Positions 7,902-60,721 of a stretch of 64,000 nt of DNA are shown here, one piece after another; the first letter of the stretch is position 1, and each line of letters begins with the position of its first letter. Position numbers and translations under genes: made by a program. The notes below the pieces were generated by a model, which saw only the letters and a list, made by a program, of their open reading frames with translations, was not told the origin of the DNA and searched no databases. Source of the DNA: Naegleria gruberi (lineage: Eukaryota); the NCBI GenBank assembly GCA_000004985.1, contig GG738876.1; one strand, 5' to 3'.

Positions 7902-8150
7902 TTTTGTACACTCGGAATTTGTAAAATATAATTTTTGTATTAATTTGTGTTTGGATTGCATATATTATTAATAATGGGTTGTTGTATGCATTTGTGGAAT
8001 TGCTTGCAGTTCTGAAATCGATTTGAGGAATTTTTCACATAATGTGAAATAATATGATTGTGAAATCTAATAAATGGTATTTCGCAATGATATTATTTCA
8101 CAAAAGGAAAGTTTATTACCACCACTTGATTTGAACAGTAGATGATGAAT

Positions 8151-19506: not shown

Positions 19507-21372
19507 CTAATGATTAATCTTGTCACCTTTAACGTTATCTTTGAGATCACTTCTTGGTTTGAGTGAAATCTTCAAATTTCCAGGTCTGACAGTAATTCCA
19601 GGAATGTCTGTAACTTTATCCAATGGATCTTGTTCATTATTCAATAGTTCCAATTCGTAGAATTGTAAAATTCTACACAAGATTGAAAATGCTTCAATTT
19701 CTGCAAATTTATAACCCTATTAAATTTCAATAAAAATATTCTAAACTAAACTTACAATCTATTTCAATAAATTAGGACAAATAGTTTTAAAATTCGAATA
19801 CTTACACACTTTCTATTTCCCATAGAGAATGGAACCCATGTAAAATCATGTTGAATCTTTGATTGTTCCTCAGCATTCATTGGAAACCTTTCTGGAATAA
19901 ACTCATTAGGTTTCTCCCAATATTTTTCATTTCTATTCGTACTGAAAATATTAATCATCACTGTACTTCCCTTTGGAATAGTAAACTCTCCAATAGTAGT
20001 CGTTTTCTTTGCAATTCTAAAAACATTGACAACTGGTGGATGCAATCTCAAAGCTTCCATCACAATTGCATTCAAATAATGCATTTGATTGTAATCTTCA
20101 TAGGTAGGAGCTCTATTTCCAATCAATCTATCAATTTCTTCTCTTGCTTTCTTTTGAATTTCAGGTCTTTTTGCTAGCTCATAACAAACATAGGCAGAAC
20201 TTGAAGCTGTCGTCTATAGTTTCGTATATAATATGAATTGATGAATAATAGAAAGTCCAATAAATACGAACCTCATGTCTATTATAATAAATTAGGACAA
20301 ATAGTTTTAAAATTCGAATACAAACCCTGCAAGCGCGAAGATAAATGAATCTGCTTTGAGTTCAGAACGTGAAAGTAAGCCATTTTGAAGAACGTTGGCC
20401 TCTACTAACATACTCAATAAATCTCTTCTCTTATTAGATTCAGTTTCGTCTGTAGTTTGGAGATTAGTTTCGTATTCTTTGATACGTTCTTCAATGATTC
20501 GATCTAAAGTAGAAGAAACAATTTCCTCTGCTTCATTGACTTTAAAGTATTTTCTAGCCATTTTGGCAAAAATTGAACTTCCCAGGAATCGTCTAATAAT
20601 CAAACCTTTGGATAAAGTAGTTTCCATTGATTTTCTAAATACTTTTCCTTCAGGATTTGGATTATCACTTTCGAATATAGAAAAGTCCAATCCAAATAAA
20701 TGCTGCCTTTCCCAAAACATCTGTTCATTCCATTAATTTAATCACACAATTCCATTATAAATTTAAATTCGAAACTATAAACTCACCCAAAGTAATATCA
20801 CTAAAATCAGCAGTCGAATCAATCAACACACCAGCACCAACACTTCCACTCTTAATTTCCTTATCCCATTTCGTTCTTCTCATCAAATCAACACTCTCAC
20901 TCGCAACCAAAGCAACAAATTCCAAATTTTTAGGTGAAAATGCAGAATTTGCAACTCTGTGATGATTTTTCCAAGTTTCAGAGTTTGCATCCAAAGCAGA
21001 CAAAATATTAACTCCAAAAAGGTTGAATGGATCGTACATATCAGGTTCCTTGACAAAGTTGTGTCCTTTGGCTACGAGCAGTTCTTTGAGAAGATCACGA
21101 TCACAAATGGAGATGAGATTAGTTTTGAGCATTGAGACACGAACTGTTTTGGTTTTGGAATCTCCCTTCTCTTGGGTGAGTTGATACATGGAATGATGAG
21201 AGCCAAGGAAGAAGTGAGAGGCAATGATTGGAACTCTCTTGACAAAATTCATTAATTGCCATGATCCTGGAATGTTTTTGACTTTCGAATAGTTTTGATA
21301 GAGACGAAAGGATAAACTGATCAGTGCAGTTAGCAAGATGGCTAATAGCGTGTACGCAACAAGTGCAAACAT
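19507..21372 (-). CDS. Cytochrome P450, multi-exon. Exons include 19507..19716, micro-exon 19756..19758, 19806..20213, micro-exon 20272..20278 and 20326..about 20720. Exon 1 ends at 21372; the exon 1/2 junction near 20721..20776 is unresolved.
   Basis: Exons align to the + strand P450 paralog: membrane anchor, I-helix AGHETT restored only if the 7-nt micro-exon is included, EALRLHPP, and heme loop FSMGNRKC-I-G restored only if the 3-nt micro-exon ATT is included. Stop codon at 19507..19509. Confidence 0.65.
19759..19805 (-). repeat. Introner-like 47-nt intron, copy 1: GTAAGTATTCGAATTTTAAAACTATTTGTCCTAATTTATTGAAATAG.
   Basis: 43 of 47 nt are identical to the second intron at 20279..20325 in the same gene. 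It has its own GT..AG and sits 3 nt upstream of a conserved intron. Confidence 0.7.
20279..20325 (-). repeat. Introner-like 47-nt intron, copy 2: GTTTGTATTCGAATTTTAAAACTATTTGTCCTAATTTATTATAATAG.
   Basis: Near-identical to copy 1. It lies at the AG|HE I-helix position where the paralogous P450 (48880..48917) is uninterrupted. Confidence 0.7.
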
Positions 21373-29582: not shown

Positions 29583-30761
29583 TTAAATATTTACAACAAT
29601 TTTTCCAACAGTTTTCTTTGATTTCATCATTTGCATTGCTTGTGTCGCTTCATCCAATTGGAAAACATTTAAATTCATCAAGCTGAAATTATTATCAGGT
29701 GTCAAAATGTTATGCATAAGGAAGGCAAATTCCTTTGGCTTTTTACCAAAGAAATTAACTAGACCATATTTAGGCGAACCTTTTGAGATTAAGGCAGAAC
29801 AAATGGTTGTTATCATATAATAAGCAGTGGAACAAATGGTTGAAAAATTGAGGGCAGCAGCACCTGGTGGAACTAGACAAGCATACACTACTTGATCCTC
29901 TGCTTTTCTACAATCCAAATGTTGCTTGACATCATCATAGAAATAGTAACCTCCAACACAATCTATAACCATATCGACATACTCTTCACCAAAGTCTCTT
30001 CTCAATACTTGGCAGACACTTGGTAACCCAGAAGTACTCGATGAGTGATATTCATTATTTCCATCCTTTGCACTTGTTTTGGTATAGTCAATTATTTCAT
30101 CAGCTCCCAAAGATTTAACATATTCAATATTCTTTTCTGAACACACAGCATAAATTGTCAAATCCAAAATCCTTTTCAAGAATTTACTGGCCATCAATAC
30201 AGCCATACTTCCGCAACCACCAGCTGCTCCAATAATCAACAATTTGAATTGTTTCTTTGGCTTTTCACTTGAATTAAGCAATTCTGGCTTTTCCATACAT
30301 TCCTTAATCAGAGCATCAATCTTTGGATGATGTGTATAGGCAGTAAATATAGTTCCACCAATTGTAGGAAATGCAGCAGCTTGCAAATCAGTCATTTCCT
30401 TTGGTTTCAAAATCAAATCATCCTCCTCAAATTTACAAAACTCTGCCAAGGTTCCAGTTTTGGCACCAGGTAATGAACCAACCACTTCATCACCAACTTG
30501 AAATTTCGTCACCAATGAACCAACCTTTTCAACAATTCCACTTCCGTCCAATCCCAAAATTAATGGAAACTCCTTCGGAAAGAGCAATTTTACAGCTCCA
30601 CTCGACATGTGGCCATCACCAGCATTCAAACTAGCAGCCTTGATCCTAACTAACACTTCCCTCTCCTTCAAATCTTGATCATTCAATTCAAAATCATTTC
30701 TTGATACAAATTCAGGTGATTCGGAATAACCTTCCAAAATTTGAGCTCTCATCTTGGTCAT
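29583..30761 (-). CDS. Zinc-type alcohol dehydrogenase / MDR oxidoreductase, a complete single-exon paralog of the gene at 1..662.
   Basis: 392 aa. GroES-like N-domain and a Rossmann fold with IIGAAGGCGS. Confidence 0.8.
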   Translation of the reverse strand: MTKMRAQILEGYSESPEFVSRNDFELNDQDLKEREVLVRIKAASLNAGDGHMSSGAVKLLFPKEFPLILGLDGSGIVEKVGSLVTKFQVGDEVVGSLPGAKTGTLAEFCKFEEDDLILKPKEMTDLQAAAFPTIGGTIFTAYTHHPKIDALIKECMEKPELLNSSEKPKKQFKLLIIGAAGGCGSMAVLMASKFLKRILDLTIYAVCSEKNIEYVKSLGADEIIDYTKTSAKDGNNEYHSSSTSGLPSVCQVLRRDFGEEYVDMVIDCVGGYYFYDDVKQHLDCRKAEDQVVYACLVPPGAAALNFSTICSTAYYMITTICSALISKGSPKYGLVNFFGKKPKEFAFLMHNILTPDNNFSLMNLNVFQLDEATQAMQMMKSKKTVGKIVVNI

Positions 30762-31084: not shown

Positions 31085-31396
31085 GGGATGTAAATTTGAA
31101 ATTGATTACAAAAATAAATTACAAAATTGTTGTAAGTTTCAATTTTTGAGCATGTATTAATTTTATAAACCACAATTTGCTATTCATTCCAATAGAGATC
31201 AATTCTACTACCTCGAAAACTATGATTATTTAATTGGGAATTACATTAGTTTCTTATAAAAAGATGCTTAGACCTAATTGTCAACCTTTCTGTCGTTTGT
31301 GAGCACAATCGTGTTCAACAAAGATGGCTGGGTTTCAATTAAGGTAATGTGGTGGTGTGAAATGTTGTCATGCCGATTGATGAACTGCTGTAATTC
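31085..31396 (+). repeat. Dispersed roughly 310-bp repeat family, copy C.
   Basis: Shares a conserved 5' end (GTAAATTTGAAATTGATTACAAAAATAAATT) and 3' end (GATGAACTGCTGTAATTCTTTT) with the copies at 40018..40330 and 42236..42550. The middle has diverged. Confidence 0.7.
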
Positions 31397-31649
31397 TTTT
31401 AACTGTTTGCTGAATTTTAATGTTTTTTACTGAAACACTATTAAAGTTGATTTCTCTAATTCTGAGCAGGTTGAAACAGCATCTTCTTGTGAAGAAACAT
31501 TGGAACAAAGTTAAAGGAAATGGATCGAATGTAACTACATTTTTTTGCTTAAGTAATATTCTAAACAGAAACCTTTCCCTTATTTCCTTTCTTGTAAATT
31601 TTTTGAAAACATTAATTTTATTTACAATTTGATAATTCATTGTAATAAT

Positions 31650-33302
31650 TCAATGCGACATTACTTCTTCATGATGCTCTTCAACAGTGTGATGTTGGTG
31701 AATATTCTTTGCCAAATAAAACCAAACAATAAATAGGCAGAAAATCAACCAAGAAAATACAAACATTACCAAACATAGTAATTGTGGTGTTAAAATTCCA
31801 AAAATATCATACAAGAAAGGAGAAGGAATCAAAACACCAATGGCTTGACCTATTCCATATCCAAAACAAATATCAAAAGCTGTAATTCTTCCCAAATAAT
31901 GATTAGGTGTCAAATGTTCGATTGATGACATGGAATAAACCCACATGACACCTCCTGCTGATCCAATAAAGAATTCAGCAATAATAAACATACTGGCATG
32001 GACACTGAAAGACATGAGTAAGAATGCAGCTGGGAAAACCAAGAAAGATCCAAGAATTATGAAACGAGTCCAGAATGCACTCCTCACTGATCTTCTTATA
32101 CGATTTCCAAAAGTTAATTCGAATAACATTGGAGCTAAACCTGATCCAACGCCAAATAGACAGTAAGCAATGGTATTAGTGAGCTTGGCTCCTCCTTCAT
32201 CATTAAATAATTGCATTGATGGTAATTCGGATAATTTAACATTGATAAATTCAATACTGGCCCAAACTGATGATCCCAATAATTTCATAACAACAAAACT
32301 CAACAAGTAACCCTTTCCACTGAATAATAACTTGAAGCCAGCAATTAATTCCTTCACAGAATGTTTCATCATTGGTAATGGTTTAGTTGGGAAATCGGCT
32401 GGTTTCGGTGGATTCAAATCAGGGAACCACAACAAGGCAATTGACAATGCCAACGCAATCAAGAACAAAACTCCATTCAATACATAACAAGTAATCAATC
32501 CAAATGCAACTCTCACAGCTCCACCAATGGCACCACCTGTATACGAACAAAACAACCATGTCAAACTATCCAATGCATTACACGCGACCAAATCATTGTG
32601 ATCGACACAGAGTGGCATCATGCATCCTCTCGAAGCATCATAAAATGCATTAAGGAAAAATATTAAGGCAAGGATGATGTAATAGAAGGAGAAGAGGACT
32701 GCCTTATTTTCCATAAAGCAACCACCAATGAGGACGAAAGCTAGAATGGCTCTCAGGACATTGCAGACAATCAAGACCTTTCGTCTATCGAAAATATCAG
32801 AAACTACACCTGCGAATGGAGTAGCAACACATGACGGTAAAAAGATACAGAGAAATACAGCACTTGTGGCAAATCCAACAGTTGTACGTTCTTCCACTTC
32901 ATAAGCAATACCAATTTCTGAAAAGTAATTTCCCATTCCTGACAAGACACCTGCCATCCAAATAATTAAAAATCTCTTATTATGAAATAGAAGTGAAATA
33001 TAGGGATTTCTTGCAAGTTTCGGCTTTGAACTTTCCTGATCCAATTGTGCATAGTTTCCAATAGTATGTGGTGCTTCCAAACTTTCCATTGACGGTCTAG
33101 GTTCAGAGTTTAGTTCAATATCGTCCAATGATTTTCTAGATAAATCCTGATCATGACTTGTCGCTTCATCATGATCTTCAATGGAAATCCTCTCTCCACC
33201 TGCAACCACTCCTCCATCCTCTTGATTCCAATCTTCATCTCCTCTTGCATGTCTTTGTTTGTCCATCACTTTCAATTCTTCTTCCATTTTTGTTGTGGTC
33301 AC
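31650..33302 (-). CDS. Major facilitator superfamily transporter, paralog of 14452..16209.
   Basis: 550 aa and about 12 TM segments. Internal nucleotide stretches are about 97% identical to the other copy. The N-terminus is acidic and unrelated. Confidence 0.75.
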   Translation of the reverse strand: MTTTKMEEELKVMDKQRHARGDEDWNQEDGGVVAGGERISIEDHDEATSHDQDLSRKSLDDIELNSEPRPSMESLEAPHTIGNYAQLDQESSKPKLARNPYISLLFHNKRFLIIWMAGVLSGMGNYFSEIGIAYEVEERTTVGFATSAVFLCIFLPSCVATPFAGVVSDIFDRRKVLIVCNVLRAILAFVLIGGCFMENKAVLFSFYYIILALIFFLNAFYDASRGCMMPLCVDHNDLVACNALDSLTWLFCSYTGGAIGGAVRVAFGLITCYVLNGVLFLIALALSIALLWFPDLNPPKPADFPTKPLPMMKHSVKELIAGFKLLFSGKGYLLSFVVMKLLGSSVWASIEFINVKLSELPSMQLFNDEGGAKLTNTIAYCLFGVGSGLAPMLFELTFGNRIRRSVRSAFWTRFIILGSFLVFPAAFLLMSFSVHASMFIIAEFFIGSAGGVMWVYSMSSIEHLTPNHYLGRITAFDICFGYGIGQAIGVLIPSPFLYDIFGILTPQLLCLVMFVFSWLIFCLFIVWFYLAKNIHQHHTVEEHHEEVMSH

Positions 33303-33668
33303 AAAATTGTAAATATTAATTAAAAAAGATGTGTTTGGTTATGTGGTGATAATTAAACAAGTGTTGGTTGTTGTGTTGTTTTTTTTGTTTTTTGAATTGG
33401 CGTAATTTTAGAATCCTTAAATAAATTCAATAAGTCCTAAGGACCGCGGCTTTGCTAAACGTTGCTCGTCCTGCATTGTTGGACTTTACAATGGAAATAT
33501 AATTGGAAAAGGCGACAATTCAGGTAACAACAAATATATTATTAAATTTTCGATGCTGATTTATCAAATCTATTTGCATTCTAATTAAGATAATGGAATG
33601 TGTGGTTTCATTGGAAGTGTTGGCAAATGAAATAATAAGAATTTTGAATTGTAATTTCACACACAAAT

Positions 33669-36005
33669 TTATTTTCTTTCATATCTTCTAAAACGAAGGG
33701 CAAGATAAATGGCAATTCTCAAAATTAGTAACATTCCCAATAGAATGAGAACGTTACCCCAAATTGGAATATGATTACTTCCTTCAAAGAAATAATTAAG
33801 AGCTGACTCTCCAGATTTGTAACATGCTTCAGATGCAATGGCAGATACAGTTTGATTCCAATTGAGTTCGGAACACAACTTTTCAGTGTATGGTTCAAGT
33901 GAAACAAGTTGATTTCCAATCGTGATGGCGCTTCCATTATTGAATGAGCAAATTTCAGTCATGTTAAAACTTGAGAGTGTTTTGGAAGAAGTAGAGCATT
34001 CAAAGGCCATTCTACTCAACTCAACCTGTGCCAATGCATGCACAGAATATCTGAATAAACTAGTGTATGCAAATGGATAGAACCATCCTCCGATTTGTGT
34101 ATTTCTTATAAGGAAACCACTGAAACACCTGTCATAAACGTTAAAATTAGAAATGGTCAGTCCAATACGTATTTAAAATGTCCAAACTTACATCCAAACA
34201 GTCATTACAACAGATATTACTAAATTTCCAACATCTACTGATTCAAAGAGGGCTCCAACAAATAATCCAATAGATTCACTCAACCATTGAACAATAATCA
34301 TAATACCAGCAAAAATGAAAAAGTTTCCAGGATTATTTTGAAATCCAATCAGCCAATAGGCACAAATTAAATTCACCACTGGAAAAATAGCTTCCACTGG
34401 TATGTGAACAATAGAATAGGAAGCATAATAGGTGAATGTTCCATAGAGATTTGATTCTCGTTCTCTAGTGAAAAGTAATCTCTGTTGAGGGAATGTAGCC
34501 ACAACTGATGCTGCAGGAACAAATGAAATGGCAGCCACAATAAAGAAAATAGCACTAATTCTATCAGTGATACCTTGTTGATCTGTAGCTAGTTTGAAAT
34601 ACAAGAGTCCACAAAATATTCCAAGAAATACAGATTGAAACAGTTCAGAAAGTAGAATCATTGGATCTCTGAATGTTGTCCTCAAATTTCTATAAATTAA
34701 AACCAAAAGTTTAAGAATATTCTCCACCAAGTAGGCATTGAGTGAGAATTTGTCATCATCCTGCGAGTCTGCTTTGCTCAATATGGTATTGGATGGAGAT
34801 TGATACAGATTACTATAAAACTTTGCAAGCCAATCAATTCTATTCTTAATCACATCCAATTCGTTTGATAATTGTTCCTTTGCTGACTTTCCTTCATTAT
34901 CAATCAAAATTTCTATGGCTGATTCAGATTTTTCTACAGCATGCAAATTGATAGCAGAGGCAGACATTAATTTTTCTTGCTTCAAGAATGGATTAGAAAC
35001 AATGGAAATGAGAAAATCTGCAGGATTGGTGTCCTCTGGCATTGGATATCCAACCATTTTCAAATAGTTTTTAACTTGAGCAACTGGTCCTGAATAAACA
35101 AGTTTGCCATGTGCCAAGAGGATTACATTGTCGAATAAGCTAAACAATGCTGAAGAAGGTTGATGTACAGTGGCAACAATGGTCTTGCCTTGATCGTGAG
35201 CCAAGGTCTGGAGCTTTTTTCCAATTTCAAGTGCTGTATATGAATCCAATCCAGAGCTATATTCATCCAACAATAACAAATCTGGATTATTAATTAATTG
35301 AATAGAGAGTGAAGTTCTCTTTTTCTGACCACCTGAGGCTCCCTTCTTTTGTTCAGTTCCAATCTTAACCTTCCTATGTGAATAAAGTCCAATATCATTC
35401 TCTACTTTGAAAGTTCTCTCACTACATGATTTCCAAATCTCAGTCAACTTGTTTCCCTTTTTGTGTTTGTACTTGAGCAGAGAAGATTCCATCAAAATTT
35501 CATGAATCGAATCTGTTGCCCTTTTTGAAAATTAAGTTATTATTCTTCTCAATACTTACAGCAAAATATCATCCTGAAAGACATAGCCACCTTGCTTTTG
35601 AAATAATTTCTTTGTCAATGGTTGACCTTTAAATGTAACAGTGCCTGTACATTCCTTAGGATTCGAAACTCTTCTAGAAATTATATCTAAAAGTGAACTT
35701 TTACCACCTCCAGAGCCACCAATTATCATTGTGAGTTGACCAGATGGTATTGTACATGAAATCTCACTCAAAATTTGTTTCTTCTTCTTTTTAAATCCTA
35801 AACCATCTAAAACCAAAGCATGTGTTGAATTGTAATTTGGTAACTGAAAATCAAAGCCTTGTTGTTGTTGATTTTTAATAACAACCACTTCATCTAATAA
35901 ACTACCCGATGATGAGGATGAAGTTGTTGTTGTGGTTGTGTTTGTTTGTTGTTCTATAAGAGCCGATGATGAGGCTTGTTGCAATTCAATTTCTCTAGTC
36001 ATCAT
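33669..36005 (-). CDS. ABC transporter, G-family half-transporter (NBD then TMD). Three exons, complement(join(33669..34128,34192..35520,35560..36005)).
   Basis: Walker A GGSGGGKSS, ABC signature SGGQKKR and Walker B LLLLDE, followed by six TM helices. Both introns are GTAAGT..AG (39 and 63 nt) and the spliced frame is continuous. Confidence 0.8.
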
Positions 36006-36302
36006 TGATCGGAAGAGTATATATTCTTTTTTATGATTTAATTTTAATACTAAATGGCCGCTTCTTAAAGGAATGTGGTTGATGAGATGATCCGTTCAAT
36101 GTTTATGTTGGATTCATGGTATTAATACTAGAAGCTTCCAGCAGCCAGGACATTCTCGAGATGCATGTGCTCGGAGTGGCGCCAATTTATTTCTAGTTTG
36201 CCGTTACGATATTTGAGTTTTTAATTAGATTTTTAAAATATTTATTTTAAAAAGAAAAAAATGGGTGACTGCTTGCAGCATTATGTTTGGCTAGATTTAT
36301 CA

Positions 36303-37715
36303 TCATTGTCGATAAATAAAACCTTCAATATCACACAATCGTGCGTAGTATCTTTTCATCAATGATGGTTCTCTTTCTTGCAACTTGTTCCATACTTCAT
36401 CACCACTATAATCGGAACACTCGAGGAGGTACTCCAAAAAGGTTAAATCCAAACCACCATCACGAGCATTGAACATGGAGTAATAGACACGTTCATCATC
36501 ATGAATACCAATTTCCTCTGCCTTAAATTTGGGAGGAAGACCTCTATAATTGCGAAATAGCTCGAGCATTGCCACTAATTTCTCATAAGCACCTTCTCTT
36601 ATCTTGGTGATGATTATTTGTCTGATGAGCTCGGTTTGATAGGTCTTGTATGGTTTGGATTGGAGGAAAATATTAAGATAGGGTTTCACCTTTTGGAATG
36701 ATTCATATTCTTGATATTGAGAAAATATATGTTCCAACTTGTAATATCTAACAATGTATGCTTCTAGTTGAGGATTTTCAATATCAAATATTCTTTCACA
36801 TTTTCCAAGTCTCTCACCTAAAAGTACATATACTCCTCTTGGTGATCTTTTTGAAACTTCCTCAATTGCAATTTGAAAGAAATCAAACCTTGCATTGAAT
36901 AATTCTGAGAGGTCGTGACGATATGGCATACGTAATGAGATACGTTTCATCATTTCACGAAACAAGCAACAACTACAATCTTCAAGATTTGGTATCTGGG
37001 TAATGGGAATCTTTTCAAAGAGTTCGAGTGTTGGATTTTTTAGTATGGAAATTTCAATGCACTCTAGGTCATAATTGACAGTTTTCAAAAGAGCATTATG
37101 AAAACTTGATCCATAATTGAAATTCTCACTTTGCAGTACCCTCTCCACTCCTTTCGAATAAATATGAGACAATTTCGCAAAGTTTACCAAAAAGTCCCTT
37201 GTACAAACTTCCATATCACTTCGAGGAATGTAATTCAAATTCCTACAAAACAAAATTTCCTTAACATCTTGACTATTCAAGCACCACTTAATTTCTTGAA
37301 AACTAATTCTAAAGTGGTGAAACAAATAATACCACTCATGTGCCATTATTCTCATCAGAACAACCTGACAAGAGGCAACATTTTCCAAAAATTCATCATC
37401 CTCCAATTTCCTTCTCAATTGTTTTGCTCTCTTCTTATAGATTCCTCTCATTCCCTTCGGACTCTGCTGATAATTGTGAAAATCATCATTCGGAAGAATT
37501 AATTCAGACTCGTGTTGAAGAGAGGAGGCTACTAAATCTTCATATCTACTAGCTGTCTGTTCTAGAAAGCATCTAATATGTCGTAGCCAATTTATTTGTT
37601 GTGTCTCAATGATGGAGAACCAATTCTTGTTAACCAACGCTGCTCGGAGAAGTAAATCACCAAGTGGAAGGAAGGAAAGAATTTCACTGATGCAATCATC
37701 ACCTGGTTCAATCAT
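36303..37715 (-). CDS. F-box domain protein, hypothetical.
   Basis: The N-terminal motif ISEILSFLPLGDLLLRAALVNKNWFSII is an F-box consensus. 470-aa ORF. Confidence 0.6.
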   Translation of the reverse strand: MIEPGDDCISEILSFLPLGDLLLRAALVNKNWFSIIETQQINWLRHIRCFLEQTASRYEDLVASSLQHESELILPNDDFHNYQQSPKGMRGIYKKRAKQLRRKLEDDEFLENVASCQVVLMRIMAHEWYYLFHHFRISFQEIKWCLNSQDVKEILFCRNLNYIPRSDMEVCTRDFLVNFAKLSHIYSKGVERVLQSENFNYGSSFHNALLKTVNYDLECIEISILKNPTLELFEKIPITQIPNLEDCSCCLFREMMKRISLRMPYRHDLSELFNARFDFFQIAIEEVSKRSPRGVYVLLGERLGKCERIFDIENPQLEAYIVRYYKLEHIFSQYQEYESFQKVKPYLNIFLQSKPYKTYQTELIRQIIITKIREGAYEKLVAMLELFRNYRGLPPKFKAEEIGIHDDERVYYSMFNARDGGLDLTFLEYLLECSDYSGDEVWNKLQEREPSLMKRYYARLCDIEGFIYRQ

Positions 37716-38224
37716 TATTTTTTTTTGTAATGTTTTTTTGTTGATCTTTTCTTAATTGAATGTGAATTGAATAGTTTACAACAAGATCCAATCGTGTGGA
37801 ATGGTTTATTAAATAGATTTAAAGATAAAATGGATTGTTCTTAATGCTGTCTTTAGGATCATTTCTGGTCAAACTTTTTGCGTCATTTGACTTTTTGGCA
37901 TGTAATAAGCAAGTTGGCATTTTGACAGATCCATTCCAATTATAATACAAATGAGTTTGAAGGTTAGCTCAATAATAGTATCCAAATTAATTTTAAATTC
38001 TTTTTCTTCCTTCACAACCTGTATCTTCATATTTTGGTAAAAGTTACTTGACTTTTGTTTAATTTCATATCTGACAGGTTTGCTCTGTCCCATGTTACTT
38101 GAAATTCTACAAGAATTCAAATAAAATTCTCAACATCAACTGCCCCAAACTTTTGTCCCTCATCAAAATCGAATTATCAATACTCGGATGCTGTCAATTT
38201 GATTAATGTGTTGAATTCTAATCA

Positions 38225-38530
38225 AATCCATTCTTTGTCAGTGGTGAAAGCTATGGTATGTTTCAACAAAATATTTGTCGATCTAAATTGACTATTTTCA
38301 GGTGGTAATTATGTTCCATTGCTCGCCAGAGAAATTTTAAAGTACAATACTAACAGTCAAAAGAAGATTTCATTCAAAGGATTGAGTGTTGGTAATCCAA
38401 CAATGGATAATGATTTGGATGCTAATGCCTATCTCCCATTCATGTTCCATCATGCTTTGGTTGGAAGTGAAGAATTTGATCTCTATCAAAAACAATGTCC
38501 AAACTTTAATACGGCTTTGATTGGTTGTAC
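38225..38530 (+). pseudogene. Relic or fragment of a serine carboxypeptidase (S10) gene.
   Basis: Encodes ..NPFFVSGESYG | 46-nt GTATGT..TTCAG intron | GNYVPLLAREIL..FKGLSVGNPTMDNDLDANAYLPFMFHHALVGSEEFD, which is the S10 active-site Ser region plus following block. There is an in-frame stop 3 codons upstream. The N-terminal and C-terminal catalytic regions are absent. Confidence 0.6.
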
Positions 38531-38606
38531 AATTCATACATGGATTTATTTTTATTGGAAAGGTTACAATTCCAATAAAAATAAATCCTTTCAAATAATA
38601 AATATT

Positions 38607-39897
38607 TCATTGAAAAATTATAATATCCGAAAGATTGCCATCAATTACTCTATTCTTAAGATTTTCTCCTTGTTCCTTCAGATTCTTTGATTCTGAATTT
38701 GTTTCCCAATAAGCAATTAAATTGTCTCTTGCTGAAGTTATTTGAAGATGTTGATTTGGTTTTGGATTGGTAACTTTGTGAATGAGTTTGAATTTTGATT
38801 GAGAATCTAAGGAGTAAATTTGTGAATTATTGATCACTAGGAAAAAGGTTTTGTTTGAGCTACACATTCTACAGGAAATAACAGGTTCACCACATATTTT
38901 AGCAAGGTTGCTATGAAACTTATCAACCAAATATAAATTGAATTTGTCTGGAAATGTTGAATAAATTAGTAGTATCTCAAATATACTTACTTGTGAGATA
39001 AATCCAACTGTAATAGGATGCACAAATGTCTATAAAGTATTCATCTTCTCCCATTAAACTTATTGGTGCCAATTGTTTCATCATTGGCAAATTATTACCA
39101 TTATTTCCCATAGAATATCCACAATAGAAAATATTGTGATCCCTTGTTAAGGCAATAATATTGTGATCTCCATTCACTGTCTTGGTAAAGAAAGGTTCTT
39201 TGCACTCATTGGAAGGGTCAAGACAACAACATTGGATAGCTGGAATATTATTATCACTAGATGGTTGAGCTATCTCAAAAAATTGATTACTTCCACATGC
39301 CAAAAGCCTTCCATGTGATGTCAGAAAACAACAAGTAAATGCAGCACATGAAGTCTTTGTAATAAATTCCCCATCTTGTAATTGAAAATCCTCCAAGCAA
39401 GTCCATTCAATTTCTGAATTCTCAATTCCACTCTGTGAAAAAGTCTCAACTCTTTCTGTAAATTTTGTTTTCCTCACTCCAAACTCATTCCTATTCGCTG
39501 AATAACAAACAAACACTCTCGTTCTAATTAAATTCATCCCACCAGTACTTCCAGCACCACCACCACTAACAGATTGAAGCACCAAAACACAAGCATGATA
39601 ACTGACACTAATATTCACAATTCTTTCATTTGGAAATTTAAAGCTAATTTTATAATATTTCCAATTCCTGTTTTTATCAAGAGAAAATACTTCATCATCT
39701 TCCGACACTACAAAACAAGTTAATTCTCTACAGGAAATAAATTTAATTCTCCCAAATCGTTGCAAGTAATTGTTCGGAATGTTTGATGTTGGTTGATTTT
39801 TAAATCGGCTACTAGTAACGGTGTTGGTAAAAAATTCGATGGAATCTTGATAATGATTGAAGAGAGAAAATGTTTCTGCTGTTAGATTTAGAGACAT
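38607..39897 (-). CDS. Hypothetical repeat protein, possibly RCC1-like beta-propeller. Two exons, complement(join(38607..38947,38991..39897)).
   Basis: ORFs 38977..39939 and 38607..39023 join in frame through a 43-nt GTAAGT..CAG intron. Gly/Cys-rich repeat segments (GRLLACGSNQ, NIIALTRDHNIFYCG). The start is placed at the A-rich ATG at 39897; an alternative upstream ATG exists at 39939. Confidence 0.55.
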
Positions 39898-40017
39898 TTT
39901 TTTGTGAACTTTTACAATTTTTATTCCATGTGTACACAACTATATATTGTATTGCTGTTTCTGATCTAGTTAGAAAGAAAAGGAAAGGTAAAGAATATAG
40001 AAAGATGAAGAAAAAAA

Positions 40018-40330
40018 AAGAATTACAGCAGTTCATCAATTGGCACACAGATTTTGTGCCAACACATTACCTAAAGCGTAACCCTTCAATCAAAGGTACA
40101 CGAGCTACACAATGACCGTCAGATTTTGCTTTTAGTCTGAGCATCTTTTTTATTAGAAACTAATGTAATTCCCAATTGAATTGTAATTGTTTTCAAGGTA
40201 ATAATCATGAACGCAATAAGAATGAATATCAAATTGTGGTTTTATTCTTTTTAAAATGTTGCACATTTTCAATCCCCAAACTGAAACTACAAATTTTGCA
40301 ATTTATTTTTGTAAGCAATTTCAAACAATC
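40018..40330 (-). repeat. Dispersed roughly 310-bp repeat family, copy A, inverted relative to copies B and C.
   Basis: This is the reverse complement of 42236..42550 with a few substitutions. On its own strand it ends in a T-run. Confidence 0.75.
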
Positions 40331-40600
40331 CATATTATTTGCGAACAACCTAATATTAGAATTGTTCTCAATTATCAATAGTCAGAATTGTAATAACTGA
40401 TATTTGGATCAAGAGTCAATGATGACATTTGTTAAATTTTTTGTAAAGTTTCATGTTCCGATTTTCAAAACCTTCCAATCAAGCAAAAACGGAAGGTTTG
40501 GAAAATCGAATAAGTTGAAACGAAACAATTTTTTGTTTTCCAACACAAAAAAAAACTAAAATCTGATCACAACATAACAACAACAAGAAGCTTCTTTAAC

Positions 40601-41266
40601 ATGATGATGGACCCGGAAACAGCCAGGTTGAAGGCCTATTTTGATGATTATTACGATCAATTCATTGATGGCCACATGGATGAGAATTTTACTAATACCA
40701 ATATTGACCATTACATTTCAACTCTTTTCAGCCGAATGGAATCAGATAAACCACCACTACCACCTGCGACTGTTGCCACTGAATGTGTTATTAGTATTGC
40801 AAATGAGAAGGATGATAGTCATAATTGTAACAATAAGATCATCATTGAATTATTAAGCTCCTTCTACTTGCAAACTCGTCGTGATCAACAAGAGGTTGAA
40901 ATTTGTGTCTACTTTGAAAAAACAAATGCAGAGCAGTGGCAACGAGTGTTTACTGCCACTGCTACCCTTGAAAAGAAGGGTCGATATAATATGAAAGCTT
41001 TTAGCAGAAAAGAACTCAAGAAGAGGCTTAAAGATCAACCTGGGTATAAGGTAAATCAAAAAGACAAATTCTATTTAGTGATTGGTCAATTCAAATTCGT
41101 ACTGGTTTCGAAACAACGTGATAAGGTACCAAAATGGCACAATCTAATTGTTGTCAGTAATAGAGAAGTCGTTTCTTCCGAATACTCTTTCACTAATTTC
41201 ACTAATAAGGCCCTTATCCCAGAATTCAACTTTGCTAAAGTTAATGATCAGCTTAGCTTTCATTGA
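40601..41266 (+). CDS. Hypothetical protein of 221 aa.
   Basis: A complete ORF between the inverted repeat copies. No domain recognised. Confidence 0.45.
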   Translation: MMMDPETARLKAYFDDYYDQFIDGHMDENFTNTNIDHYISTLFSRMESDKPPLPPATVATECVISIANEKDDSHNCNNKIIIELLSSFYLQTRRDQQEVEICVYFEKTNAEQWQRVFTATATLEKKGRYNMKAFSRKELKKRLKDQPGYKVNQKDKFYLVIGQFKFVLVSKQRDKVPKWHNLIVVSNREVVSSEYSFTNFTNKALIPEFNFAKVNDQLSFH

Positions 41267-41560
41267 TGAGTTCGATTGCCAATACTACTTATAATTAGTT
41301 TAGTTTGGTGATCACTACATACTTTATATATTCTATATGTATCCATTCCTCTATCTATCCATACTATATATATTACTATCTATCCATCCAAGAGTATTCG
41401 AAATTTCAATTAATGGTAGTGGTTGGTGTTATTTAGAACCCATTTGAATAACAAGCGAACCACTACCATTAATTGGAATTTTGATTGCTGCAGATGTTCA
41501 TGCTAGTATCTATAATCCATCCTTATTCAAATCCAGTCTTATTGATTGGTAATTTTCAAT

Positions 41561-42052
41561 TTTATGCATTAAAACCTGTAGGGACATCATCAATCAAACA
41601 CCTTACAGAGTGAAAGATAACAAGGAACTGATCTGTGATTAGTTTCTTGTTGAGTGGACCAAAGAGTGAGGTTGTCCAAACAATAACATAAGGCAACTTC
41701 TCTCATCCACTCTATTCGAATTGCTGTTATGCCATTCGAATCACAGCTGTACTCATTAGGGAGCATTAGTCTATTTTCGATTAAGTAATTGAGTATTTGC
41801 AATCTGTTGCTTGTCGCTGTTGGTAAAGTTTCAGATAATATCATACTTATTACACCTTAGTGATAGATCCATGATTAGTTTTCAGTTTACTATTTAATTT
41901 GGGCAACTTACTTTCCTTAATGTTATTGTTTGGACAACCTCACTCTTTGGTCCACTCAACAAGAAACTAATCACAGATCAGTTCCTCGTTATCTTTCACT
42001 CTGTAAGGTGTTTGATTGATGATATCCCTACAGGTTAATGCATATAAAACTA
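41561..42052. mobile_element. Foldback / MITE-like non-autonomous element with about 130-bp terminal inverted repeats.
   Basis: 41561..41692 is the near-perfect reverse complement of 41920..42052, with 2 to 3 mismatches. A roughly 230-bp non-coding core lies between. No ORF. Confidence 0.75.
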
Positions 42053-42235
42053 ATAAAAATTGATTCAAATCAATTTGAATTTATTTGTTTAATTATTTTT
42101 CCTTGAAAATCTTGGAAAATCTTCAAATTATTCTGCCGAGATTTGCAGCGAATATTGACTCCTTGTTTGAATATCAACCATAAAGAACAATTAGAATTGT
42201 TTCATTCAATTTTTCAATATATAGGTGAAAGAAAA

Positions 42236-42550
42236 AACTGTAAATTTGAAATTGATTACAAAAATAAATTTCAAAATTTGTAGTTTCAGTTTGGGGATTG
42301 AAAATGAGCAACATTTTAAAAAGAATAAAACCACAATTTGATGTTCATTCTTATTGAGTTCATGACAATTACCTTGTAAATATCACTATTCAATTGGGAA
42401 TTACATTAGTTTCTAATAAAAAAGATGCTCAGACTAAAAGCAAAATCTGACGGTCATTGTGTAGCTCGTGTACCTTTGATAGAAGGGTTACGCTTTAGGT
42501 AATGTGTTGGCACCAAATCTGTGTGCCAATTGATGAACTGCTGTAATTCT
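42236..42550 (+). repeat. Dispersed roughly 310-bp repeat family, copy B.
   Basis: Same family as copies A and C. Ends in CTGCTGTAATTCTTTTTTTT. Confidence 0.75.
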
Positions 42551-42716
42551 TTTTTTTCTTCATCTTTCTATTCTTTACCTTTCTTTTACATTCTAACATC
42601 TCTGATATTCGAAACTTGAAAGTTTTCATTTAATTTCGAATTGATTGGAACGAAACAATCATTTTTGAATTTAATAGAACTTTCTCAAAATCAATCAATT
42701 TCAATTGACCAAAAAA

Positions 42717-43631
42717 ATGTCTCAAGACAATCTCACAGATGAAGAATCGACATATTTCATTAGAAATTATCCATTAACTCATCCTTTCATCATGGCACAC
42801 TATAAGAAACAACGAACCATTCCTGTATTGGCTGCTCCTCTTTCTAGTTTTGCAGTTAGTTGTGCTACCATCTCGTACTTTGCCTTTAGTTTAACCTTTC
42901 CCGAGAAGAGATTAGTAATGGATTATGTACATGATGAATATTCGAATAATGGAAGTGGAAAGCCCAGATATAGTGGTGGAATTGTGGATGTGGTGAGGAA
43001 GATTTATGCTGAAGAAGGAATTGCTGGAGTTTTGGGGAAGAAAGAGGCTGTAGCAGCATTGATTGAAATGGGAGCTACCATTGGATATTTTGCAACTATT
43101 GGAAATGTTGTGAAATCTTTTACTGTACCGAATAGTTGGTTAGAATTTGCTATTGACACTTTCTTAATGAATACTGTGATTCATCCAATTTTAGTCGTTT
43201 CGTTTGCCCTTCATAAGAGATTTGACGACAAAACGAAAGATAATAGGGGATTTATTGAGACTGCAAAGAAGATTTATTCAGAAAGTGGTGTGAAAGGATT
43301 TTATCGTGGTTTTGGTTGGTCTTTTTTATTCCACCTTGAAAAGGTTTACAAAAAAGGTTTAGCTTGGGTAATTCGTTCAGGAGTGGAATTTTTTCTTGAC
43401 ATTGAACATGAAAACTTGGATGCTGAAACACACTTTACATTGAAACATATTGAAATTAATTTAGTTAAAATCCTTTACGATGTGATAATGCCATTCTCAT
43501 CATCCTTGGGTAGATATGTTGGAGATCAGGGAGCTACCTATTCCAATTACTTTGATTGTGTGAAAAAGACTTACCAACAAGAAGGATTGAAAGGATTGTA
43601 TAAGGGTTCATGGGTGGCAATCTTTTTGTAG
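42717..43631 (+). CDS. Divergent mitochondrial-carrier-family-like protein.
   Basis: Repeated G..G.Y+G-type signatures (GVKGFYRGFGWSF, GLKGLYKGSWVAI) and amphipathic helices. The ATG is preceded by an A-run. Confidence 0.5.
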   Translation: MSQDNLTDEESTYFIRNYPLTHPFIMAHYKKQRTIPVLAAPLSSFAVSCATISYFAFSLTFPEKRLVMDYVHDEYSNNGSGKPRYSGGIVDVVRKIYAEEGIAGVLGKKEAVAALIEMGATIGYFATIGNVVKSFTVPNSWLEFAIDTFLMNTVIHPILVVSFALHKRFDDKTKDNRGFIETAKKIYSESGVKGFYRGFGWSFLFHLEKVYKKGLAWVIRSGVEFFLDIEHENLDAETHFTLKHIEINLVKILYDVIMPFSSSLGRYVGDQGATYSNYFDCVKKTYQQEGLKGLYKGSWVAIFL

Positions 43632-47897: not shown

Positions 47898-49615
47898 ATG
47901 TATCTTATTGAACTGTTGCTTGCAATTCTACTTGTCATTGCAACCATTATCATTGTGAGAGTTTATACGAGTTATAGAAAGGTTTCACACATTCCTGGAG
48001 GTTGGCAAATAACCAGTTTTCTATTTAGAATTCCAATTGTGGCAGAGTATGTCTTTATTAATAATCCGAGAAGAATTCTTCAATTGGTAAAGGAGAAGAG
48101 TGAGAAGGAGAATGGAAATGTTGTGAGAGTTAGTTTGATGGGTAGAAATATTGTCTATATCAATGATAAAGAGTTACTGAAAGAGGTTATTGTGACGAAA
48201 GGTCATAATTTCCCAAAACATAAGGCGCCTTATGAAGGATTTACTATATTTGGTGAGAATATATTGACCATTGAGGATTCTGCTGATGAAAATTTAAGAA
48301 ATCATCACAAGGTTTGTTCCCCTGCATTCACAAATCAAAATTTGGAATATCTTGTAGATTATTCTTCTAAAAGTATCGGAAAGTTGTTCGATAGATGGCA
48401 GAAACAAACTAAAGAATACACAATCAATGGAAAAACTGTACAAGGTTACTCACCTGCAGATATCAAGAATGATTTCAGTGATTTGACTCTTGATATTTTA
48501 GGACAAGTTGGTTTTGGTTTGGATTTTGACATTTTCTCTGCTAATGAACATTCTGAAGGCATTGAATTTAGAAAAAGTCTTGAATTACTTTTCACAACTG
48601 GTGTATTTGTTAAATTATATGTTGGAATGAATCCTCTCCTTAAATGGGCTCATCCACTAGCTCAACAATATTTTGGAATTGACCATGCATTGAAGTATGT
48701 GAGTTCCAAATTGGATGACATGATTTCTGTGAGAAAGAATGAAATTGAACATCAATTTAGTTTATCTGGTGAAGGTTCTGATAGAAGAGACTTGTTGAGT
48801 TGCTTGATTGAAGCAAATTATCTTCAAAAAGGTTTATTGACTGATGATGAAGTCAAGTCTGATGCGTTTATTTTTTCGCTAGCCGGCCACGATACTACTT
48901 CAACAACCTTCCAATGGGTAAGTTTTAATTTTTTTATTGTTATTTAAATTTTTTTTATTTTTTTAAAATTTTCAAATTCCATAAATAGTGTTGTTATGAA
49001 TTAGGAAAGAGATTGGATGTTCAACAAAAAGTTCGTGAAGAAGTCAATTCCATCTTGAAAGGAAGAAAGCCAGTCTTTGATGACTTTACCGAAATGAATT
49101 ATTTGAATTGTGTTGTTATGGAAACTTTAAGATTGCATCCACCAGTTCCAGCTGGTTTCCGTGTGGCCAAGAAATCAACCAACATTGGAAAATATCAAAT
49201 TCCAAAGGGTACCATTATTGCACTCGATTTGGCTAATACCAATTGGAATGAAAAACATTGGGAGAAACCTTTCGAATTTATTCCAGAAAGATTTGCTATG
49301 AATTTTGATGAAAGACAAAAAACTGAAAGTGATTTTACGTGGGTTCCATTCTCTATGGGTAACAGAAAGTGCATTGTAAGTTTGAAAATCTATATTTCAT
49401 TTATTTAGGCATTTAAATAATTCCAAATTTGTAAATTTTAGGGATTTAAATTTTCCAGATATGAATTATTCACCCTATTGAGCAATATGATGCAAAAATA
49501 TGAAATTATCACATTGAATGATGAATCTAATCCAAAAGATAGAGTATATGAAGTCCCTGGTCCAACCATCAATCCAGGAAATTTAAGATTGCTATTTAAG
49601 GAAATTTCCAATTAA
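47898..49615 (+). CDS. Cytochrome P450, three exons: join(47898..48917,48989..49375,49442..49615).
   Basis: N-terminal anchor, I-helix AGHDTTS, ETLRLHPP, PERF, and heme loop FSMGNRKC-I|G with an intron after Ile. Both introns are GTAAGT..AG. Confidence 0.85.
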
Positions 49616-59496: not shown

Positions 59497-59567
59497 TCGG
59501 GTGTGGTATAGTGGTAGCATTCCAGACTGTCACTCTGGCGACCCGGGTTCAATTCCCGGCACTCGAG
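59497..59567 (+). tRNA. tRNA-Asp(GUC): tRNA-Asp (anticodon GUC).
   Basis: Cloverleaf: acceptor TCGGGTG/CACTCGA, anticodon stem CCAGA/TCTGG with loop CTGTCAC (U33 G34 U35 C36 A37), T arm CCGGG-TTCAATT-CCCGG, D-loop AGTGGTA. Closely resembles eukaryotic tRNA-Asp-GTC. Confidence 0.9.
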
Positions 59568-59764: not shown

Positions 59765-60721
59765 ATGATTAAACCCAATACCACATCGTCCCTCGATCAT
59801 GAAAATAATCACAACTCCACTAGAAGTGTCATACAACAAGATGATTCGGAATCTAAACCAATCCAACTCTCAGAAAATCTGCATTTCAATTATTTGTACC
59901 TATCGGACGATGTAATTGGTGAAATTCTATCTTTTCATGATGATTTTCAATTTGTAGTAATGAATTGTGCATTGGTTTCAAAACAGTGGTTGAAAGTCAT
60001 TTCGGAACGATCAAAACTTTCATTGGAATGGAATAACTTGAAGAAATTGAAGGGAAGATTTTTACAGAATATCACAACTTTCACAGTGAGGGCTATTGAA
60101 GGAATTGGATTGATTAGTGACATACTGAAACAATTGAAATTTCTGGATATTTCTACTAATGCTATTGGATATAAAGGAGCTAGATATATTGGCCAATTGG
60201 AACAATTAAATCATCTTGAAATTAGAAATTGTAATATTGGAGTGGAGGGAGATAAATATATTCGTCAATTGCAACATTTGACTCATCTTGATATTGGATG
60301 CAATAACATTGGTGATGAAGGAGTCAAATATATTAGTCAATTGAAACCATTAACTAATCTAAATGTTTATTTAAATAATATTGGTGTTGAAGGAGCGAAA
60401 TATATTAGTGAGCTTAAACAATTAACTCATCTTGATATTGGGTGCAATGACATTGGTGGTGAAGGTGCCAAATATATTGGTACACTTGAAAATGTAACTC
60501 ATCTCAGTATGTCAGATAATAATATTGGTTGTGAAGGTGCAAAATATATTAGTGGAATGAAACATCTAAGTTTTCTCGATATTGCTACCAATCGTATTAG
60601 AGATGAGGGAGCGAAATATATTGGTGAAATGGAACAATTATCATTTCTGTTTATGAGATACAATATTATTAGTGATGAAGGAGCAAAATATTTAAGCGAA
60701 AGAGGATTCAATAATTGTTGA
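59765..60721 (+). CDS. F-box-like plus RNI-type leucine-rich-repeat protein, paralog of 21543..22415.
   Basis: N-terminal motif DDVIGEILSFHDD..VSKQWLKVI. About nine tandem 24-aa repeats of the form L.HLDIG.NNIGDEGAKYI. Confidence 0.75.
   Translation: MIKPNTTSSLDHENNHNSTRSVIQQDDSESKPIQLSENLHFNYLYLSDDVIGEILSFHDDFQFVVMNCALVSKQWLKVISERSKLSLEWNNLKKLKGRFLQNITTFTVRAIEGIGLISDILKQLKFLDISTNAIGYKGARYIGQLEQLNHLEIRNCNIGVEGDKYIRQLQHLTHLDIGCNNIGDEGVKYISQLKPLTNLNVYLNNIGVEGAKYISELKQLTHLDIGCNDIGGEGAKYIGTLENVTHLSMSDNNIGCEGAKYISGMKHLSFLDIATNRIRDEGAKYIGEMEQLSFLFMRYNIISDEGAKYLSERGFNNC

Follow-up and report, generated by a model that had tools for sequence, protein, structure and literature searches.

The analyzed window, a 64-kb stretch of Naegleria gruberi DNA considered as a whole, contains three homologous copies of a ~320-bp unit, as identified by BLAST and a covariance model. 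We interpret these three units as paralogous genes that encode a small structured N. gruberi RNA not described before, a reading to which we assign a probability of roughly 0.55. Each unit is organized in two parts, and judged from their sequence the units look like a ~150-bp upstream promoter module joined to a ~155–161-nt RNA-coding part and an oligo-T terminator. The features of the three copies are listed below, with positions counted from the first nucleotide of the window.

31089-31400, plus strand: copy 1, whole unit
31089..31235, plus strand: copy 1, putative upstream module, AT-rich and unstructured, containing a T5 run and a T4 run
Starting at 31095, plus strand: copy 1, block A (TTTGAAATTGATTACAAAAATAAATT)
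31167-31179, plus strand: copy 1, block B (AAACCACAATTTG), 69 bp before the GGG
31236..31396, plus strand: copy 1, predicted RNA of 161 nt (GGGAAUUACA...UGUAAUUC), a three-way junction with a 16-bp terminal helix
31397..31400, plus strand: copy 1, T4 run, candidate terminator
40327-40011, minus strand: copy 2, whole unit
40174..40327, minus strand: copy 2, putative upstream module, with block B at 40242-40230, 69 bp before the GGG
40020..40173, minus strand: copy 2, predicted RNA of 154 nt
40011..40019, minus strand: copy 2, T9 run
39969..40010, minus strand: copy 2, ~40-bp T/C-rich trailer, common only to copy 3
42239-42557, plus strand: copy 3, whole unit
42239..42395, plus strand: copy 3, putative upstream module, with block B at 42328-42340, 68 bp before the GGG
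42396..42549, plus strand: copy 3, predicted RNA of 154 nt
42550..42557, plus strand: copy 3, T8 run
42558..42597, plus strand: copy 3, trailer, common only to copy 2, with an 11-bp indel in another strain

All three copies are located within 11.5 kb of the 64-kb window. Neither BLAST nor the covariance model revealed further copies in the window, and a covariance-model scan of the window with filters turned off returned unrelated hairpins only. The first-pass annotation had reported a three-copy repeat in this region, and our BLAST alignments recover it with positions that agree within a few bases. Copies 2 and 3 form a young pair, with a BLAST E value of 1e-127 and 94% identity across 357 bp. 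Copy 1 is an old copy with an overall divergence of 28–34%, and it aligns to copies 2 and 3 with an E value of 1e-49 and ~71–72% identity across 340–390 bp. The conserved 3' end followed by T4 to T9, as previously described, is fully borne out: the motif CCRATTGATGAACTGCTGTAATTC is identical in all three copies and is followed by T4 in copy 1 (31397-31400), T9 in copy 2 (40019-40011), and T8 in copy 3 (42550-42557). The description of near-identical 5' ends applies exactly to copies 1 and 3, but copy 2 departs from the quoted 5' motif by a 4-nt deletion (TGT----TTGAAATTG) and two substitutions. The T-run marks the limit of similarity across the whole family, but copies 2 and 3 remain alike for ~40 bp beyond it, to 39969 and 42597, with a trailer identity of ~88% in a global alignment and 75% in an ungapped one. 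Because this trailer occurs only in copies 2 and 3, and an extra ~26 bp upstream is common to copies 1 and 2 and absent from copy 3, the unit has no fixed termini.

No ORF is common to the copies. A 21-mer and a gapped two-block pattern each gave 0 matches in the JGI metagenomes, so no orthologues were obtained from there, and the GTDB genomes also gave 0 matches to the repeat. Among viral contigs, we found five matches to an 18-mer, none of them supported by the covariance model. A full-text literature search for the sequence strings of the repeat gave 0 matches.

The RNA part is well structured, with minimum free energy (MFE) z-scores of −4.33, −3.10, and −2.54 for the three copies. The z-scores of the 5' half are +0.46, +0.37, and +0.87, corresponding to folding no better than that of shuffled sequence. 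In the predicted fold, the two ends of the RNA pair in a 16-bp helix that closes a three-way junction. All 16 bp of the closing helix are invariant, while copy 1 has a central arm unlike that of copies 2 and 3. The same helices emerged when copy 1, copy 2, and the copy on L001, a metagenome contig from a 99%-identical sister strain, were each folded separately by MFE. Comparison of these folds reveals compensatory changes in two of the helices: P2b changes from AAUUG/CAAUU to AAAGC/GCUUU, with three pairs changed on both sides, and P4 changes from GGUGUGA/UCAUGCC to GGCACA/UGUGCC, with two pairs changed on both sides and two additional wobble changes. Using a MAFFT alignment with RNAalifold and a pair count, we found 94% of the cells paired and five pairs changed on both sides. 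Only 4–6 of 500 shuffles reach these values, a control that does not amount to a true probability, and pairing in slid controls is 32–43%. Since copy 1 and copies 2 and 3 represent only two effectively independent sequences, just a handful of pairs underlie the covariation. The first-pass annotation had suggested structural covariation among the copies as a check, and across these two independent lineages the fold is kept through compensatory changes.

The strand that carries the T-run folds 9–19 kcal/mol better than its complement and forms many G-U pairs. The z-scores of the complementary strand are negative too (−2.4 to −3.2), and the choice of strand therefore rests on the absolute energy, the G-U pairs, and the T-run.

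Between the old and young copies, conservation is distributed in blocks. The diverged interior that had been noted earlier is present, but the divergence is not uniform: perfect runs of 32, 25, and 23 nt are embedded in an alignment of 66% identity, and a column shuffle gives P = 1.5e-4 for this block-wise pattern. Within the young pair, the RNA part contains 2 substitutions across 154 nt, compared with 17 differences across 193 flank columns (~9%; Fisher P = 0.005). In the present strain, copy 3 has two private substitutions, both of which are located in stems and are stem-breaking. At the copy 3 locus of L001, both private positions hold the bases of copy 2, and the trailer contains an 11-bp indel.

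A duplicated cis-regulatory DNA module without an RNA product, be it promoter, insulator, or origin-like, is the most credible of the alternative explanations, yet we consider it unlikely. The palindromes would then be DNA or protein-binding sites, with local segmental duplication and gene conversion accounting for the spread of the copies. Copies 2 and 3 sit 120–165 bp upstream of protein-coding genes in the same orientation, but no gene follows copy 1 in its orientation, and the neighboring genes are unrelated to one another (ADH-like and MFS, RCC1-like, and mitochondrial carrier). As the genes downstream of the copies are unrelated, a duplicated promoter of paralogous genes was rejected as well. 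The module is also favored by the 5' ends of copies 1 and 2, which face divergent genes ~275–330 bp away, by the resemblance of the invariant AT-rich blocks to factor-binding sites, and by the unequal 5' extents, which fit segmental duplication. However, the strongest constraint within the young pair falls on the structured part and not on the gene-proximal part. The intergenic DNA of the window is rich in long hairpin palindromes, as this explanation would have it, but the helices of the repeat are preserved by G-U pairs, and on the opposite strand or in DNA these pairs would become C-A mismatches; the superior folding energy of the T-run strand likewise argues against a module that acts as DNA.

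The reading as small structured-RNA genes assigns a separate role to each half of the unit. The upstream half behaves like a promoter module. Two invariant blocks, A and B, are found in this module in all copies. The spacing from block B to the GGG is 68–69 bp throughout, although the intervening sequence has diverged, and block A is positioned either 72 or 83 bp upstream of block B, a difference of approximately one helical turn. The region near −30 is A/T-rich and contains no motif conserved across the copies, and the 30 bp that precede the GGG are the least conserved stretch in the copy 2/copy 3 pair. In dictyostelids, small-RNA genes carry a CCACAA-type element (DUSE) ~60 nt upstream, which in P. 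pallidum takes a two-C form (PMC7919456). A DUSE-like reading of block B would be an analogy only.

The RNA part is free of any T4 run, and a run of T4, T9, or T8 stands directly at its end, where it adjoins the closing helix in all three copies. The T4-free stretch that ends at the terminal T-run measures 232–233 nt in each of the three copies; T4-free stretches of at least 230 nt account for 6% of intergenic gaps and are hence not rare. A tRNA-Asp gene identified by ARAGORN at 59497 in the window has a T5 run 8 nt downstream, which indicates that oligo-T termination is used in this genome. Together, the 3' oligo-T, the T4-free predicted transcript, and the upstream blocks at a fixed distance are features of type-3-like Pol III genes. 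We infer that the units are transcribed, probably by RNA polymerase III using an external promoter and the oligo-T terminator. A single Pol III transcript over the whole 310 bp is impossible, because T4 and T5 runs occur inside the upstream module and the 5' half is unstructured. The earlier proposal of a non-coding RNA family with a Pol III oligo-T end thus agrees with the structured 3' half, its compensatory changes, and the T4-free stretch, but it does not extend to the entire 310 bp.

It is quite improbable that the same RNA gene family is instead transcribed by RNA polymerase II in the manner of snRNA genes, or as a ~230-nt precursor starting near block B, with the T-run being incidental or a 3'-end processing signal. 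Such a transcript would accord with the lack of a conserved TATA at −30, with the extension of the T4-free stretch 70 nt upstream of the closing helix, and with the short T-run of copy 1, which is no longer than T4, and the similar dictyostelid upstream element serves both polymerases (PMC7919456). A 3' box could lie in the ~40 bp that copies 2 and 3 conserve past the T-run, but this trailer is not conserved in copy 1. Furthermore, the T-run directly borders the closing helix in every copy despite the 28–34% divergence of copy 1, and the repeat contains no Sm-site-like motif and has no Rfam snRNA match, all of which speaks against this alternative.

For a Pol III-transcribed gene family, we propose the following mechanism. 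Factors would bind the invariant blocks A and B upstream of the predicted RNA start, and Pol III, directed by an external snRNA-type promoter, would start near the GGG and stop at the T-run. In the folded RNA, the terminal 16-bp helix would form between GGGAAUUACA.UAGUUU at the 5' end and GAACUG.UGUAAUUCUU at the 3' end, and the structure would be completed by a central arm that is long and irregular and by a short hairpin on the 3' side. The invariant junction strands UAAUAAAAAAGAUGCUCAGAC, GGUAAUGUG, and AUUGAUGAAC are likely protein- or RNA-binding sites, in keeping with a possible role of the RNA as a ribonucleoprotein scaffold, and the 3' U-tail beside the closing helix would represent the type of end bound by La protein.

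Rfam searches of the window at gathering scores identified tRNA only, and searches of copies 1 and 3 at E≤10 returned nothing credible and no known RNA class. We also compared the predicted RNA with known classes by architecture. Y and vault RNAs are also small, with their 5' and 3' ends in a long conserved closing helix beside a 3' oligo-U and a central region that varies among paralogues. Their genes sit in small local clusters of three to four paralogues that have diverged from one another, and every gene has upstream promoter elements of its own. N. gruberi has been reported to encode homologues of the major vault protein (PMC3762200). In contrast to these RNAs, copies 1 and 3 have no Rfam Y_RNA or Vault match at E≤10, and inspection of the sequences by eye revealed neither the Ro-binding bulged-helix sequence nor a vault-type internal box A/B. 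The predicted RNA, with ~155–161 nt and a three-way junction, is also longer than a typical Y or vault RNA.

The snRNA-type genes (dictyostelid DUSE/Class I, plant USE, and metazoan PSE) have an upstream element ~60 nt before the start, to which the invariant CCACAA-containing block of the repeat, at a fixed 68–69 bp upstream of the predicted RNA start, is comparable; a 3' T-run, RNA ends paired in a stem, and a multi-copy organization are further similarities. The predicted RNA differs from dictyostelid Class I RNAs in that its host is heterolobosean, it is three times longer, and it lacks the Class I 11-nt motif; assignment as a dictyostelid Class I or DUSE gene was rejected because the host is not a dictyostelid. 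We tentatively suggest, with somewhat less than even confidence, that the predicted ~160-nt RNAs constitute a Pol III class outside Rfam that is specific to Naegleria or to heteroloboseans. This class would combine a closed architecture like that of Y and vault RNAs with an upstream promoter of the SNAPc type, and would form the RNA component of a ribonucleoprotein.

A 2008 survey lists N. gruberi for an additional whole-genome Infernal search for U1, with none reported, implying that homology searches had not yet found U1 at that time (PMC2396436). The predicted RNA resembles U1 snRNA in being ~160 nt long and multi-copy, and copies 2 and 3 contain a UUACCU string ~30 nt upstream of the closing helix. 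However, the context of UACCU varies between copies (AUUACCUUG versus ACUACCUCG), the repeat contains neither U1-70K or U1A loop motifs nor an Sm site, and in the closed architecture an Sm site could not be followed by a 3' stem-loop. None of the U1 hallmarks (5' ACUUACCU, U1-70K/U1A loops, Sm site with 3' stem-loop) is conserved among the copies, and no Rfam U1 match was found at E≤10. Judged by their motifs, U1 snRNA, RNase P/MRP, telomerase RNA, box C/D or H/ACA snoRNA, and 5S all fail to fit. A UGAUGA near the 3' end lacks a partner D box in the right place for a box C/D snoRNA, and short CR-I/CR-V-like strings occur in the wrong order in an RNA that is too small.

The least probable of the alternatives is a non-autonomous mobile element, either SINE-like or with copies 2 and 3 serving as the ~355-bp TIRs of a 2.6-kb DNA transposon that carries the ORF at 40601-41266, copy 1 being a solo remnant. 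Like SINEs, the repeat is short, non-coding, dispersed in both orientations, and equipped with a possible Pol III terminator, but only three copies are seen in 64 kb, clustered within 11.5 kb. The SINE-like alternative offered by the first-pass annotation is disfavored by the missing tRNA-, 7SL-, or 5S-derived head, A and B boxes, target-site duplications, and A-rich, poly-A, or simple-repeat tail, by the variable 5' extent (the ~26 bp of copies 1 and 2), and by block-wise selective constraint with compensatory pair changes in place of uniform divergence. Consistent with this, ARAGORN finds the tRNA-Asp at 59497 as the only tRNA in the window and no tRNA-like head in the copies, copies 1 and 3 have no Rfam match to tRNA, SRP, or 5S at E≤10, and the weak A-box-like string that copies 2 and 3 contain is not retained in copy 1. 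The transposon variant draws on the inverted arrangement of copies 2 and 3, on their 94% identity and sharply bounded similarity, and on their position on either side of an orphan ORF without a Pfam domain. L001 breaks within the repeat, and a second metagenome contig, L003, ends ~280 bp short of copy 1, both of which would suit a mobile element. Nevertheless, the ORF lacks a transposase domain, and its sole database relative is its own N. gruberi entry. As the first-pass annotation had noted for ORFs, TIRs, and target-site duplications, none is consistent in the copies: among direct repeats of at least 5 bp within ±8 bp of any boundary definition, none was consistent (the best being TTTTT or 3–4-mers), no target-site duplication was found at any tested boundary, and the head compared with the reverse-complemented tail of the unit gave only 11–19 of 40 matches, showing no inverted termini. 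A composite transposon around the domain-less orphan predicted protein at 40601-41266 (no target-site duplication), a Candida solo LTR, considered because of the 33% GC and rare CTG codons (no TG...CA end, no target-site duplication, and a Naegleria host), and a Helitron (no TC...CTRR ends, no A|T insertion site) were each rejected.

Our literature search found nothing specific on Naegleria small RNAs and little on heterolobosean small non-coding RNAs. If transcribed, the units would add a lineage-specific structured RNA to Heterolobosea and would offer an initial view of how an external small-RNA promoter is built there, with an invariant CCACAA block near −68 and a second block that shifts in spacing by one helical turn. 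This promoter signature could serve to find other unannotated small-RNA genes in the genome, and the practical impact would be modest unless the RNA belongs to a conserved particle.

The three copies of the repeat reported in the first-pass annotation were all recovered in the window by short-word BLAST:

31089-31430, + strand, copy 1
40325-39969, - strand, copy 2
42239-42597, + strand, copy 3

Copies 2 and 3 form a young pair (94% identity, E = 1e-127), whereas copy 1, the old copy, is 71-72% identical to each (E ~1e-49). The end motifs had been quoted correctly, and the 3' T-run, given as T4 to T9, reads T4, T9 and T8 in copies 1, 2 and 3. The similarity of copies 2 and 3 continues ~40 bp past the T-run into a common trailer, and ~26 bp upstream are common to copies 1 and 2 and missing from copy 3. 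Short-word BLAST found no further matches elsewhere in the 64-kb window, and no fourth copy was detected there by a covariance model of the three copies, whether its filters were at default or switched off. Scans of JGI metagenomes, GTDB genomes and viral sequences for further copies returned nothing usable.

The interior had been described as more diverged, but invariant blocks also occur inside the unit. Overall identity between copies 1 and 3 is 66% with gaps counted, yet their alignment contains perfect runs of 32, 25 and 23 nt; the longest is matched in 0.015% of column shuffles, and the total in runs of at least 15 is reached by none. Within the young pair, the 3' RNA part carries 2 substitutions in 154 nt, against 12 differences in 152 columns of the upstream module and 5 in 41 of the trailer (RNA part versus flanks, Fisher P = 0.005). 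The ENA metagenome ERZ929261 contains a 99%-identical sister strain, whose copy 3 locus has the copy-2 base at both variable RNA-part positions; the changes in copy 3 are therefore recent and private to the window strain. Each of them breaks a pair, which counts mildly against strict constraint on copy 3.

The 3' 154-161 nt have 36% GC and lack T4, and the T4-free stretch ahead of the terminal T-run spans 232-233 nt in all three copies. This part has good folding scores (z = -4.33, -3.10 and -2.54 for copies 1, 2 and 3), and when folded independently, copies 1 and 2 and the copy 3 locus of the sister strain share one architecture. In these predictions the two ends pair in an invariant 16-bp closing helix, GGGAAUUACA.UAGUUU with GAACUG.UGUAAUUCUU. 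The basal helix of a long central arm is AAUUG/CAAUU in copy 1 versus AAAGC/GCUUU in copies 2 and 3, and a 3' hairpin is GGUGUGA/UCAUGCC versus GGCACA/UGUGCC. On a MAFFT alignment, RNAalifold and pair counting returned 46 base pairs; 94% of their cells are paired, and in 5 of the pairs both sides have changed. The observed pairing values were reached by 4-6 of 500 shuffles, and partners slid by 1-3 columns paired at only 32-43%. Covariation among the copies, proposed earlier as a check, is present in helices that recur in independent folds, and the RNA fold appears to be conserved; because the independent lineages number only two, this is supportive rather than proof. The T-ending strand, with many G-U pairs, has a fold 9-19 kcal/mol more favourable than that of its complement.

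The 5' ~150 bp are very AT-rich and have no folding advantage over shuffled sequence (z = +0.46, +0.37 and +0.87). Two invariant blocks lie here, TTTGAAATTGATTACAAAAATAAATT and AAACCACAATTTG. The second stands 68-69 bp before the GGG that starts the structured part in every copy; the first precedes the second by 72 bp in copy 1 and 83 bp in copies 2 and 3, a difference of about one helical turn. Since this half contains T4/T5 runs, lacks structure and holds invariant blocks at fixed spacing, we predict that it is a promoter module.

The best-supported reading (probability about 0.55) is a family of oligo-T-ended genes for small non-coding RNAs. The earlier proposal of a Pol III-like family thus stands as to oligo-T-ended genes; it is modified in that RNA is likely for the 3' ~155-161 nt only, with the 5' half as the predicted promoter. 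Among the alternatives, that the units are non-transcribed regulatory DNA modules is unlikely, and that the same RNA is a product of Pol II or is transcribed as a longer precursor is also improbable. A mobile element is likewise unlikely: the units have no terminal inverted repeat, LTR-type ends or conserved ORF, no target-site duplication was found at any boundary definition tried for the three copies, in agreement with the first-pass annotation, and the variable upstream extent fits ordinary segmental duplication and not fixed-end transposition.

The SINE-like alternative raised earlier was not borne out either, given no target-site duplication and no tRNA-, 7SL- or 5S-like head in the units. 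Between copies 2 and 3, which are in inverted orientation, lies a 1.9-kb segment with one orphan ORF and an inverted repeat with 124-bp arms, and no transposon marks were found in this segment. The genes beside the three copies (ADH-like and MFS transporter, RCC1-like, mitochondrial carrier) are mutually unrelated, so the repeat is not a by-product of gene-family duplication.

The Rfam comparison suggested earlier gave the family no match, either in the window at gathering scores, where tRNA-Asp alone was returned, or credibly on copies 1 and 3 at E<=10. That tRNA-Asp (GTC; 59497-59567), the sole Rfam/ARAGORN match in the window, has a T5 run 8 nt downstream. U1 snRNA was rejected, its hallmarks being neither present nor conserved in the copies; a 2008 survey of spliceosomal RNAs lists an extra whole-genome U1 search for N. 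gruberi and reports none (PMC2396436). The closest functional analogues of the predicted RNA would be Y and vault RNAs, by resemblance and not membership: there too the two ends form a closing helix, the centre is variable and the 3' end is oligo-U. Their genes occur in small paralogue clusters, as the repeat family does here. In how it would work, the unit also resembles, without belonging to, snRNA-type genes whose upstream element precedes the start by ~60 nt; one example is the DUSE of dictyostelids, which in P. pallidum has two C's, like the second invariant block here (PMC7919456).

The window is gene-dense (33% GC, few introns) and encodes F-box, RCC1-like, ankyrin-kinase, MFS, ABC and P450 proteins. 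ORF 40601-41266 matches an NCBI entry, 'predicted protein [Naegleria gruberi]', at 100% identity, and the closest named relative of a second ORF is also from N. gruberi. ORFs 29583-30761 (ADH-like) and 42717-43631 (mitochondrial carrier) are intact and have no identical N. gruberi protein in the searched collection; an ENA metagenome supplies their only near-identical (99%) matches, and the reference annotation may lack these genes or model them differently. An inverted duplication, 14800-16179 and 31692-33068 (76-88% identity over four reported segments), takes in a pair of paralogous genes for MFS transporters, ORFs 14452-16209 (+) and 31650-33302 (-). Outside this duplication, ~250 bp past the stop of the second gene, lies copy 1.

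Copy 3 and the orphan ORF flank the inverted repeat 41573-41696/41913-42036, whose 124-nt arms are 96% complementary and are separated by a 216-nt spacer; its palindrome runs on into flanking ATGCATTAA/TTAATGCAT. It shows no sequence relationship to the repeat family and may represent an element of MITE-like or hairpin type. A second case of dispersed similarity, in inverted orientation, links 19807-20103 and 49075-49371 (71-81% identity) and overlaps short ORFs beside a split P450 gene, perhaps as a duplicated exon or a fragment of a pseudogene. A 44-bp direct repeat (19758-19801 and 20278-20321, 95%) has its copies 520 bp apart. ORF 59765-60721 encodes a repeat-containing protein, with a tandem array of 72-bp period at 60160-60663 (six overlapping 144-nt copies reported, 65-74% identity to the reference copy). 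Intergenic DNA also contains long near-perfect hairpin palindromes:

8043-8102, intergenic palindrome
38542-38588, intergenic palindrome
40449-40515, intergenic palindrome
41398-41484, intergenic palindrome

Their stems measure 19-27 bp, and their DNA-fold z-scores run from -4.6 to -9.9. Several lie just past the 3' end of a gene or in the interval separating convergent genes; the palindromes may serve N. gruberi as signals for 3'-end formation or termination.
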